Shown here in pieces: positions 56,992-57,322 of a DNA stretch of 64,000 nt. The DNA comes from an uncultured bacterium. GTDB taxonomy: Bacteria; Chlamydiota; Chlamydiia; Chlamydiales; JAAKFR01. The DNA lies in assembly GCA_964588495.1 (NCBI GenBank), contig CAZPPS010000002.1:1108-65107 (forward strand), given 5' to 3'. How positions within the stretch are numbered: the stretch's first letter is position 1; every line of letters starts with the position of its first letter. Under the pieces are notes generated by a model. It ran no database searches. It saw only the letters and a program-made list of their open reading frames with translations, and was not told the DNA's origin. The translations under genes and the position numbers were made by a program.

Positions 56992-57322
56992 CCGTGCGTG
57001 ACCGTGAACCGAACCGTGTTCCGTACCCGAGAAAATAAAAACGCAGAGACGCAGAGGCGCAAAAGACGCAAAGAGAGAAAAATGTGACCCTCTTCTCTGT
57101 GTCCTCTGTGTGCTCTGTGGTTGTTTAATTTCTCGGAACATTTTTGCCATACAGTCTGAGTGATTTTTTTAAACCACAGAGAACAGAGAGGACATAGAGA
57201 GGGGGGGGAATACATTTTTCTCTCTTTGCGCCTCAGCGTCTCTGCGCCTCTGCGTTTTATTTCTCTCAGAAACGAAACTCGGGTCGGTCACGGTCACGGT
57301 CACGGACTCGGTCACGCACGGG
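56992..57322. repeat. Three-tier nested palindromic element (331 bp)
   Basis: Outer arms: 56992-57029 and 57279-57322 (CACGGT hexamers, termini CCGTGCGTGACCG / CGGTCACGCACGG). Middle arms: 57037-57077 and 57218-57258 (acgcagag units). Inner arms: 57092-57122 and 57171-57200 (ctctgtgnn units). Confidence 0.9.

Follow-up and report, generated by a model that had tools for sequence, protein, structure and literature searches.

A three-tier palindrome of short tandem units downstream of fabI in a chlamydial genome, and related inverted arrays in other phyla

The 64,000-nt stretch of chlamydial DNA analysed here (the window; about 44% GC) has genes for sctR/S/T (FliP/Q/R), for a FabI of the plant type and for DUF720 proteins. 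Between a FliO-like open reading frame (ORF; 56414-56908) and fabI (57331-58224), both on the minus strand, lies the subject of this report: a near-continuous palindrome of 330 bp at 56992-57321, flanked by AAATATC and GATTAGG, whose arms are arrays of 6-, 8- and 9-nt units set in three concentric tiers around a 49-nt centre. An earlier note, made from the sequence alone, had described this element at 56992-57322; the element is real, and it ends one G sooner.

Anatomy of the palindrome and its copies in the window

Each tier of the palindrome has its own unit family: CACGGN (6 nt) in the outer tier, ACGCAGAG-like units (8 nt) in the middle tier and CACAGAGNN (9 nt) in the inner tier. The outer left arm (56992-57031) opens with the terminus CCGTGCGTGACCG, at 0 mismatches, and continues in degenerate 6-nt units (CCGTGN). 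The linker AAAATAAAA (57032-57040), which pairs with TTTTATTT at 57256-57263, leads to the middle left arm (57041-57078), where about four 8-nt units (ACGCAGAG, GCGCAAAA or GACGCAAAG) stand in the form C[AG]C[AG][AG]AG, here called sense. A second linker, AAAATGTGACC (57079-57089), pairs partially with 57203-57217 and is followed by the inner left arm (57090-57122), which consists of three 9-nt units, CTCTGTGNN, in the antisense form and ends in GGTT. Beyond the unique centre or loop (57123-57171), of which only the first ~12 nt resemble the centre of the copy at 48034-48243, the inner right arm (57172-57202) begins with AACCACAGAG, continues in degenerate NNCACAGAG units and is 86% complementary to its left counterpart. 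The middle right arm (57218-57255) is built of the 8-nt units CTCTGCGY and CTTTGCGC; it is joined by the linker TTTATTTCTCTCAGAAACGAAA (57256-57277), a junction also kept in the half copy at 55686-55700, to the outer right arm (57278-57321), which contains five GGTCAC units and closes with the terminus CGGTCACGCACGG.

The three concentric pairs of arms in the earlier description are borne out by Tandem Repeats Finder (TRF), by an inverted-repeat search and by both RNA and DNA folding. TRF returned arrays of period 6 at 57285-57316, of period 8 at 57037-57074 and 57227-57254, and of period 9 at 57095-57119 (93% matches) and 57178-57200. The inverted-repeat search gave concentric pairs of 35, 22, 53 and 44 nt with 86%, 95%, 79% and 73% complementarity, respectively. 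Folded as RNA, the palindrome forms a single long hairpin of -197.8 kcal/mol, compared with -100.2 ± 5.5 for shuffled sequences (z = -17.6); folded as DNA, it reaches -113.3 kcal/mol (z = -17.5). In this comparison, which had been set beforehand, the arms paired far better than shuffled controls, 0 of 100 of which folded as well as the palindrome. We also considered and rejected an arrangement in which each half forms its own hairpin, with the 8-nt arm pairing with the 9-nt arm: in the 57-kb and 48-kb copies such folds were weak (-8 to -16 kcal/mol, z from -0.4 to -3.4), indicating that the single long hairpin dominates.

Some parts of the original description need to be narrowed. The arms are indeed tandem arrays, but the linkers (for example, AAAATAAAA/TTTTATTT) and the centre are unique sequence, so that the element is not composed entirely of tandem units; the centre, given as about 50 nt, measures 49 nt. 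Similarly, the outer pair of 6-nt units does have conserved termini, but its left arm is degenerate: it is only about 78% complementary to the right arm, and TRF gives no period-6 array there. The 13-nt terminus CGGTCACGCACGG occurs seven times in the window at no more than 2 mismatches (0.35 expected). Six of these seven sites lie at an outer boundary and face outward, and the remaining one (55739-55751) repeats the terminus in the interior of the half copy. The 9-nt doublet CTCTGTGNNCTCTGTG occurs nine times in the window (0.26 expected).

Further copies in the window contain the tiers in other combinations. At 1-151, a partial copy whose left part is cut by the window edge consists of an outer right arm preceded by a nested, short-looped hairpin of the 8-nt tier; positions 120-150 are 97% identical to 57292-57322. 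The 8-nt tier and outer right arm reported there are present, but there is no 9-nt tier: the apex of the 8-nt hairpin, GAAAGAAATTTTTTTCC, occupies the place that the 9-nt module holds in the 57-kb copy. As had been described, an outer-tier-only copy lies at 45002-45120, between two convergent stop codons, with 58-nt arms that are 90% complementary and a 16-nt loop. A two-tier copy placed earlier at 48031-48243 was found at 48034-48243, with 8-nt units (ACACGAAG/ACACAAAG) outside, 9-nt units (CTCTGTGNN…NNCACAGAG) inside and no outer arms. The supposed solo outer arm at 55703-55773 is part of a half copy at 55686-55775, 1 nt from the sctR stop codon, that comprises the junction GTTTTATTTCTCTC and then a 6-nt arm with a duplicated terminus; because the 8-nt/6-nt junction GTTTTATTTCTCTC is retained, this copy is a truncated right half and not a free-standing arm. 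A single 8-nt array, ACACAAAG x3, lies at 26099-26128 and is 93% identical to the reverse complement of 48216-48245.

The sister type with GTGCCC units is likewise present at the five places listed for it. It forms hairpins at 21988-22096 (CCGTGC x5 … GGCACG x5) and 43599-43681 (CCTGTGCCCG … CGGGCACAGG), a degenerate copy at 48875-48930 (CCTTGCCCCTGCCCC … CGGGCACGGG), a short hairpin at 58286-58335, between the stop codon of an rluA-like gene and the fabI start, and a single arm at 11158-11187 (CACGGG x5) that begins directly 3' of a stop codon. Loops of the 8- and 9-nt tiers in the window measure 49-57 nt and enclose no cargo gene.

All 12 arrays from strict scans lie in non-coding DNA, although coding sequence makes up at least 85% of the window (several apparent gaps are further genes, to judge from their ORF translations); the claim that every copy is intergenic therefore holds for all strict arrays, and the check for copies inside coding sequence found none. 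In the window, 10 of 11 copies lie no more than 20 nt from a stop codon. Between co-directional genes, copies adjoin the upstream stop: the palindrome is 9 nt from the fabI stop, as against 83 nt from the fliO start, and other copies lie 1-3 nt from the sctR and rluA-like stop codons.

Related arrays, their cargo genes and known repeat families

We defined a class of arrays with C[AG]C[AG][AG]AG units as two inverted arrays of at least 2-3 units each, at 8-10-nt spacing, in non-coding DNA; the middle and inner tiers at 57042-57255 and 48035-48242 belong to it. A metagenome scan for three copies of CTCTGTGNN yielded at least 120 loci (L107-L226; contig GC 35-71%), and a scan of IMG/VR for the same units also yielded at least 120 (L357-L476), with contig GC over both scans ranging from 27 to 71%. 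Loci L001-L099 served only as background; they are 99 chance matches of a GC-rich terminus pattern in high-GC genomes, with no chlamydiae among them. The arrays occur in Bacteroides finegoldii, Bernardetia, Gemmatirosa, Sphingomonas, Microcoleus (or a Microcoleus-like contig), a deltaproteobacterial metagenome-assembled genome and a second chlamydia (L150). In all, inverted arrays of the 8- and 9-nt units are present in at least six phyla, as well as on IMG/VR contigs. Related units found in the same loci include CGCAGAG, CACGAAG, CGCAAAG, CACGGAG and CGCGGAG, along with 10-nt units such as CACGAATCAA.

The arrays have a preferred orientation. Among the matches listed, the order CACAGAG…CTCTGTG (S…A, for sense and antisense) outnumbers the reverse by 48 to 6 in the metagenomes and by 42 to 6 in IMG/VR. 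Because S…A order is invariant under reverse complementation, this is a true polarity, and strong polarity is expected for elements with defined ends. The usual outer ends are (T-rich)CAC-CACAGAG … CTCTGTG-GTG(A-rich), with ACC/GGT at the outer ends. In the palindrome, the middle tier has this prevailing orientation (sense, loop, antisense), and the inner tier, whose GGTT and AACC point toward the loop, has the minority A…S form (6 of 54 and 6 of 48 pairs among the matches listed); free-standing A…S hairpins exist elsewhere. The heptamers are exact in both arms, and the 2-nt spacers match between arms at only ~49% of positions (~32% expected by composition). Exact heptamers with variable spacers indicate that the unit itself is conserved, and not merely pairing. 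The units are therefore probably iterated recognition sites for a trans-acting protein and not mere stem filler.

No 6-nt hairpins were found in L100-L226. Candidate 6-nt arrays in IMG/VR were set aside as mostly unrelated repeats, with inverted pairs in only 2 of 120 among the matches listed. The 6-nt tier thus appears to be lineage-restricted in the sample examined.

Nesting also occurs elsewhere. Complementary flanks beyond the 9-nt arrays were present in 7 of 52 hairpins: the two window copies, L128, L150, L199, L206 and L175. Only the palindrome at 56992-57321 has three tiers among these 52. L128 and L150 have two, with 8-nt units outside and 9-nt units inside, both S…A, and the spacers between the tiers of L150 lack complementarity, which is the arrangement expected of a small palindrome lying in the loop of a larger one. 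The view of the palindrome as the archetype of one window-wide system is thus not upheld: the tiers behave as separate families that occur alone or nested in varied orders and orientations, in the window as in L128 and L150.

Outside the window the arrays often flank small genes, among them genes of the GxxExxY family (TIGR04256, PF13366; PD-(D/E)XK nucleases). GxxExxY genes lie inside S…A brackets of 9-nt units in L143, L157 and L185, of 8-nt CGCAAAG units (the type of the palindrome's middle tier) in L206, and of CACAAAG/CACGAAG units in L227. In an unbiased sample of 8 plasmid-borne GxxExxY loci, a strict scan found arrays at three (Bacteroides finegoldii, Gemmatirosa and Sphingomonas); looser arrays were seen in Bernardetia on reading the flanks, and the Treponema locus has a single inverted unit. 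The plasmid loci contain 7 arrays in 8.4 kb; unrelated background loci contain 5 in 727 kb and none in 1.08 Mb. The GxxExxY genes there are wedged between co-directional housekeeping genes, for example in the order fabD-GxxExxY-fabG. GxxExxY had no match in INPHARED phages, and we found no solved structure for it.

Other small ORFs occupy brackets on IMG/VR contigs and encode, among others, Cas2/VapD-like, DpnD/PcfM-like and zinc-ribbon proteins. Two related IMG/VR contigs (L439:2650-3950 and L465:4650-5930) are ~95% identical in their flanks and both arrays, and the 3' parts of their cargo are unrelated; this pattern is expected if cargo is exchanged between fixed array boundaries. In L228-L232, also from IMG/VR, AT-rich 12-13-nt units form inverted arrays on either side of a PDDEXK_3-like gene, and the termini GCTTCGCTTGAAAT…ATTTCAAGCGAAGC are conserved. 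The architecture is that of the window tiers, and the unit is wholly different.

We found no description of the arrays in Rfam or the searchable literature. One PCR primer in the literature happens to fall inside a Bacteroides fragilis array. Some contigs of the metagenome set (L149, L203, L213, L215, L152 and others) also contain long arrays of unrelated 7-nt units, such as GACCTTG x16 and GGTTGCA x9, and CAGATGA/TCTGACC as an inverted pair; the arrays there resemble cyanobacterial STRR (short tandemly repeated repetitive) sequences.

The earlier note had not recognised the palindrome's organisation from REP (repetitive extragenic palindromic)/BIME (bacterial interspersed mosaic element), ERIC, Correia, BOX or RUP elements. 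For REP/BIME this agrees with our results: the arms are multi-unit arrays, and the GTAG/CGTC tag of REPs is absent at the termini CCGTGCGTGACCG…CGGTCACGCACGG, AAACGCAGAG… and CTCTGTGGTT. The tests that we ran for miniature inverted-repeat transposable elements (MITEs), terminators and Rfam families were negative as well. No terminator-like site or U-tract was found at any element in 55400-58400, and there was no Rfam match at gathering score across the window; at permissive E-values, Rfam gave generic hairpin matches to eukaryotic miRNA precursors, far below threshold. ERIC, BOX, RUP and Correia elements differ from the window element in architecture and host range. Nor is it a CRISPR, which consists of direct repeats of 20-50 nt with unique spacers: the units here are 6-9 nt, directly adjoining and in inverted pairs.

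REP units are imperfect palindromes of 20-40 nt, one end of which has an unpaired GTAG or CGTC tag (PMC3733652); REP/REPIN sequences are mobilised by RAYT proteins, and opinion is divided on whether they are selfish DNA or serve to stabilise RNA (PMC3733652, PMC3116915). The window elements resemble REP/BIME/REPIN in being extragenic and mostly downstream of genes, in forming long hairpins from inverted pairs, in having many copies and several families per genome, and in lacking target-site duplications. They differ in that their arms are arrays of 6-9-nt units and not one 20-40-nt palindrome, in reaching 330 bp and three concentric tiers, in having units that are common across phyla and flank cargo genes, and in that no RAYT is seen in the window. 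To MITEs (such as Correia) and cyanobacterial small dispersed repeats, the likeness is that all are short, non-coding, intergenic and bounded by inverted repeats. Cyanobacterial small dispersed repeats can reportedly insert into one another, as Elhai et al. are said to have described in 2008. The elements are unlike MITEs in that they lack target-site duplications, end in tandem arrays and have no parent insertion sequence (IS) with matching ends in the window.

Two further groups share single features. Foldback and Galileo elements have long inverted terminal repeats that are internally made of short tandem repeats (PMC3573991); however, they are eukaryotic, kilobases long and associated with a P-element-type transposase, and the likeness is an architectural analogy only. 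Arrays of the TAACTGA heptamer are intergenic, comprise 2-6 copies of the 7-nt unit and occur in unrelated phyla by a mechanism of spread that is not known (PMC4679880). These and the cyanobacterial STRR sequences are direct repeats located just upstream of start codons, whereas the palindrome's arrays are inverted, nested, placed after stop codons and have 1-2-nt spacers. The bracketed loci also recall the intervening sequences of 23S rRNA, in which an inverted-repeat stem surrounds a small gene of a family also found free in genomes; unlike these, the window elements do not lie in rRNA and have no ORF. Intervening sequences of 23S rRNA carry such small ORFs, and at L213:2531-2818 (minus strand) we noted an N-terminal fragment of what we take, by eye, to be a four-helix-bundle protein of the 23S rRNA intervening-sequence type, directly adjoining CACAGAG and GAACCCTT arrays.

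Chlamydial relatives offered a view of the fabI-fliO region without the palindrome. No identical record was found for the window's FabI or RluA-like protein. The nearest relatives of the window's FabI are 85% identical, a distance that rules out Waddlia, which the GC content had suggested, as the source. In L100, L103 and L105 (FabI 82-84% identical), the gene order rluA-fabI…fliO-fliP is kept, and fabG-like and folB genes, plus a hydrolase gene in L103 and L105, lie between fabI and fliO, where the window has the palindrome only. We found no arrays at the rluA-fabI-fliO region of these three. Because their gene order differs from that of the window, they are not clean empty sites; the palindrome may mark a site of deletion or rearrangement at the fabI-fliO junction. 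L105 does contain ACGCAAAGACACAGAG and CTCTGTGTCC…CTCTGTG; with ~1.6 kb between them, they surround a small ORF and other palindromes. In L150, the second chlamydia with the units, the neighbouring gene encodes CPAF. Six contigs carry the same CPAF protein. Five of them extend beyond the first units and show no difference across the shared part of the adjacent element; this identity makes them uninformative on gain or loss. Five independent assemblies agree exactly on the L150 element, and three of them end within it, as a multi-copy repeat would lead one to expect. In the paper on the Waddlia genome, the only repeats mentioned are those that exceed 200 bp.

Nested foldback repeats and the competing readings

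We favour, at a probability of roughly 0.55, the reading that three foldback repeats, each from a different family, without genes and with arrays for arms, are stacked in the palindrome, nested in one another and selfish or semi-neutral in character. The 8- and 9-nt tiers would be local, miniature, cargo-less members of the cross-phylum array class. In the simplest course of events, one palindrome would have inserted at the apex of another; copies would have multiplied in the chlamydial genome and would persist where they are least harmful, just after stop codons. Very stable hairpins would enter transcripts as a by-product and could have been put to use, for example in processing or in protection of 3' ends.

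Several observations weigh against this reading. No consistent direct repeat of at least 4 nt (target-site duplication) was found at the boundaries of 7 copies. Signs of movement are lacking in the window: we saw no RAYT or GxxExxY gene and no parent IS with matching termini within the 64 kb, and no transposase was found among the best 25 of 62 Pfam families matched by 53 window ORFs or, by eye, in the gap ORFs. The search of relatives yielded no pair of empty and filled sites. Copies in the window have diverged, with 78-97% identity in short stretches, and the three-tier copy (the 331-bp copy, as first delimited) has decaying outer arms; any activity is therefore not recent. Antisense…sense order, which is rare elsewhere, is found in the inner tier and, with CACGG read as the sense unit, in every 6-nt hairpin; a simple interpretation as cargo-less brackets leaves this unexplained. 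In Gemmatirosa, the GxxExxY gene lies between two complete hairpins, not inside one, and none of 120 IMG/VR array loci among the matches listed has a GxxExxY gene. The nuclease thus cannot be a universal partner of the arrays; it is a candidate partner in some lineages. Finally, placement close to stop codons is equally expected for an RNA element selected by the host.

Beyond the window, we tentatively propose that the arrays, together with sister arrays built of other units, mark a widespread, undescribed gene cassette or foldback mobile element of bacteria and phages. The arrays would be recognition sites at both ends, the cargo would include GxxExxY, Cas2/VapD-like or DpnD-like genes, and the cargo would be moved or exchanged by the small nuclease, or by another factor, working on the palindrome or cruciform; the three-tier copy would then be a fossil stack of emptied units. 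The distribution of the arrays suggests such a cassette-like or foldback mobile unit. Their 7-nt units recur from Bacteroides to Cyanobacteria to IMG/VR, and the statistical tie to GxxExxY gives that uncharacterised family its first testable DNA partner.

It is unlikely, in our judgement, that the elements are instead host-selected RNA elements that punctuate operons, as RNase III sites or 3'-protective stem-loops, with arrays generated by slippage and maintained by selection for pairing, since repeat-built stems still pair after gain or loss of units. Such elements would account for the 10 of 11 copies that lie within 20 nt downstream of a stop, nearer to the upstream stop than to the downstream start, and for the extreme predicted stability. 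Brackets would also fold the ends of the cargo mRNA together, as in 23S rRNA intervening sequences. REPs are similarly placed and are thought to act as RNA (PMC3733652). The absence of U-tracts and terminator-like sites at the elements argues against this role, as does the copy at 21988-22096, which lies between divergent gene starts. Hairpin stability shows no bias toward the transcribed strand in the window or among 43 hairpins elsewhere with a single upstream gene, which split 22 against 21 (p = 0.63), and G·U counts are not biased toward the transcribed strand. This fits a palindrome that acts at the DNA level, or a function on both strands. Moreover, the spacer dinucleotides are mostly non-complementary and the heptamers invariant, such that selection for pairing alone is insufficient; and identical heptamers at GC contents of 27-71% point to shared recognition or horizontal spread, not local invention.

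Somewhat more doubtful is an origin of the three-tier copy by inverted duplication of a linear series of three arrays, or as an ancestral full form of which the other copies are derivatives. The linkers are complementary too, which makes the whole 330 bp one continuous palindrome, and same-orientation series of different arrays exist, for example in L189. Long palindromes tend to lose their centres, and such deletions would give rise to the outer-only copy at 45002-45120 and to the outer and middle tiers at 1-151; the half copy at 55686-55775 shows that truncation occurs. Central loss from a full copy gives most of the patterns, but not that at 48034-48243, which has the inner two tiers without outer arms. 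Other evidence also counts against this origin: each tier type is found alone in other phyla, L128 and L150 show other nesting orders and orientations, and the spacers between the tiers of L150 do not pair.

We consider it improbable that the arrays serve as iterated binding sites of a nucleoid-organising, insulator or partition-like protein of the chromosome, with the palindrome reflecting binding geometry and neither mobility nor RNA. Conserved heptamers with varying spacers, regular spacing of 6, 8 or 9 nt, polar orientation and the lack of strand bias would all fit. On the other side, there is no candidate protein, unit families differ by tier and by genome (down to the AT-rich 12-13-nt units of L228-L232), arrays travel with variable cargo on IMG/VR contigs, and close chlamydial relatives have no arrays at the same loci. 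Assembly or amplification artefacts such as inverted chimeras are scarcely credible: the window does come from a metagenome-assembled contig and assemblers break at the elements, but the arms are imperfect, differently decayed and marked by copy-specific variants, about twelve separate places in the window have them, finished replicons of cultured Bacteroides, Gemmatirosa and Sphingomonas show this architecture too, and the L150 element is the same in all five of its assemblies.

Whatever their origin, very stable palindromes placed directly after stop codons fill a large share of the spacers in this compact chlamydial genome, including those of the sctR-sctS-sctT type III secretion cluster. 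They are relevant to how operons are expressed, to rearrangement of the genome (in relatives, three additional genes separate fabI from fliO) and, because assemblers break at these repeats, to assembly quality.

Other repeats in the window

A second palindromic family, with the core GGAGTGCGGCGAYTYKTCGCCGC, is unrelated to the first and occurs at 14633-14660, 14727-14758, 17066-17112, 25960-26075 and 26152-26311; it forms a complex 350-bp cluster 3' of the stop codon of the gene at 23203-25956. A third family is represented by a 168-bp palindrome at 63287-63454, with arms that are 77% complementary, one of which recurs at 62059-62095, 1.2 kb upstream, at 97% identity. Isolated hairpins lie at 9026-9060, just after the stop codon of an outer-membrane-factor-like ORF (7497-9020), and at 37962-38052, between divergent genes.

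Between sctR (fliP) and sctS (fliQ), the ORF at 54591-55439 encodes a repetitive protein rich in Gln, Gly, Arg and Asp and contains a 42-nt tandem repeat at 55011-55096. ORFs of unknown function occupy the same position in L100 and L103, and not in L105. At 28713-36900, several adjacent large genes share segments that are 75-94% identical, and their sequences suggest a tandem paralogous family.

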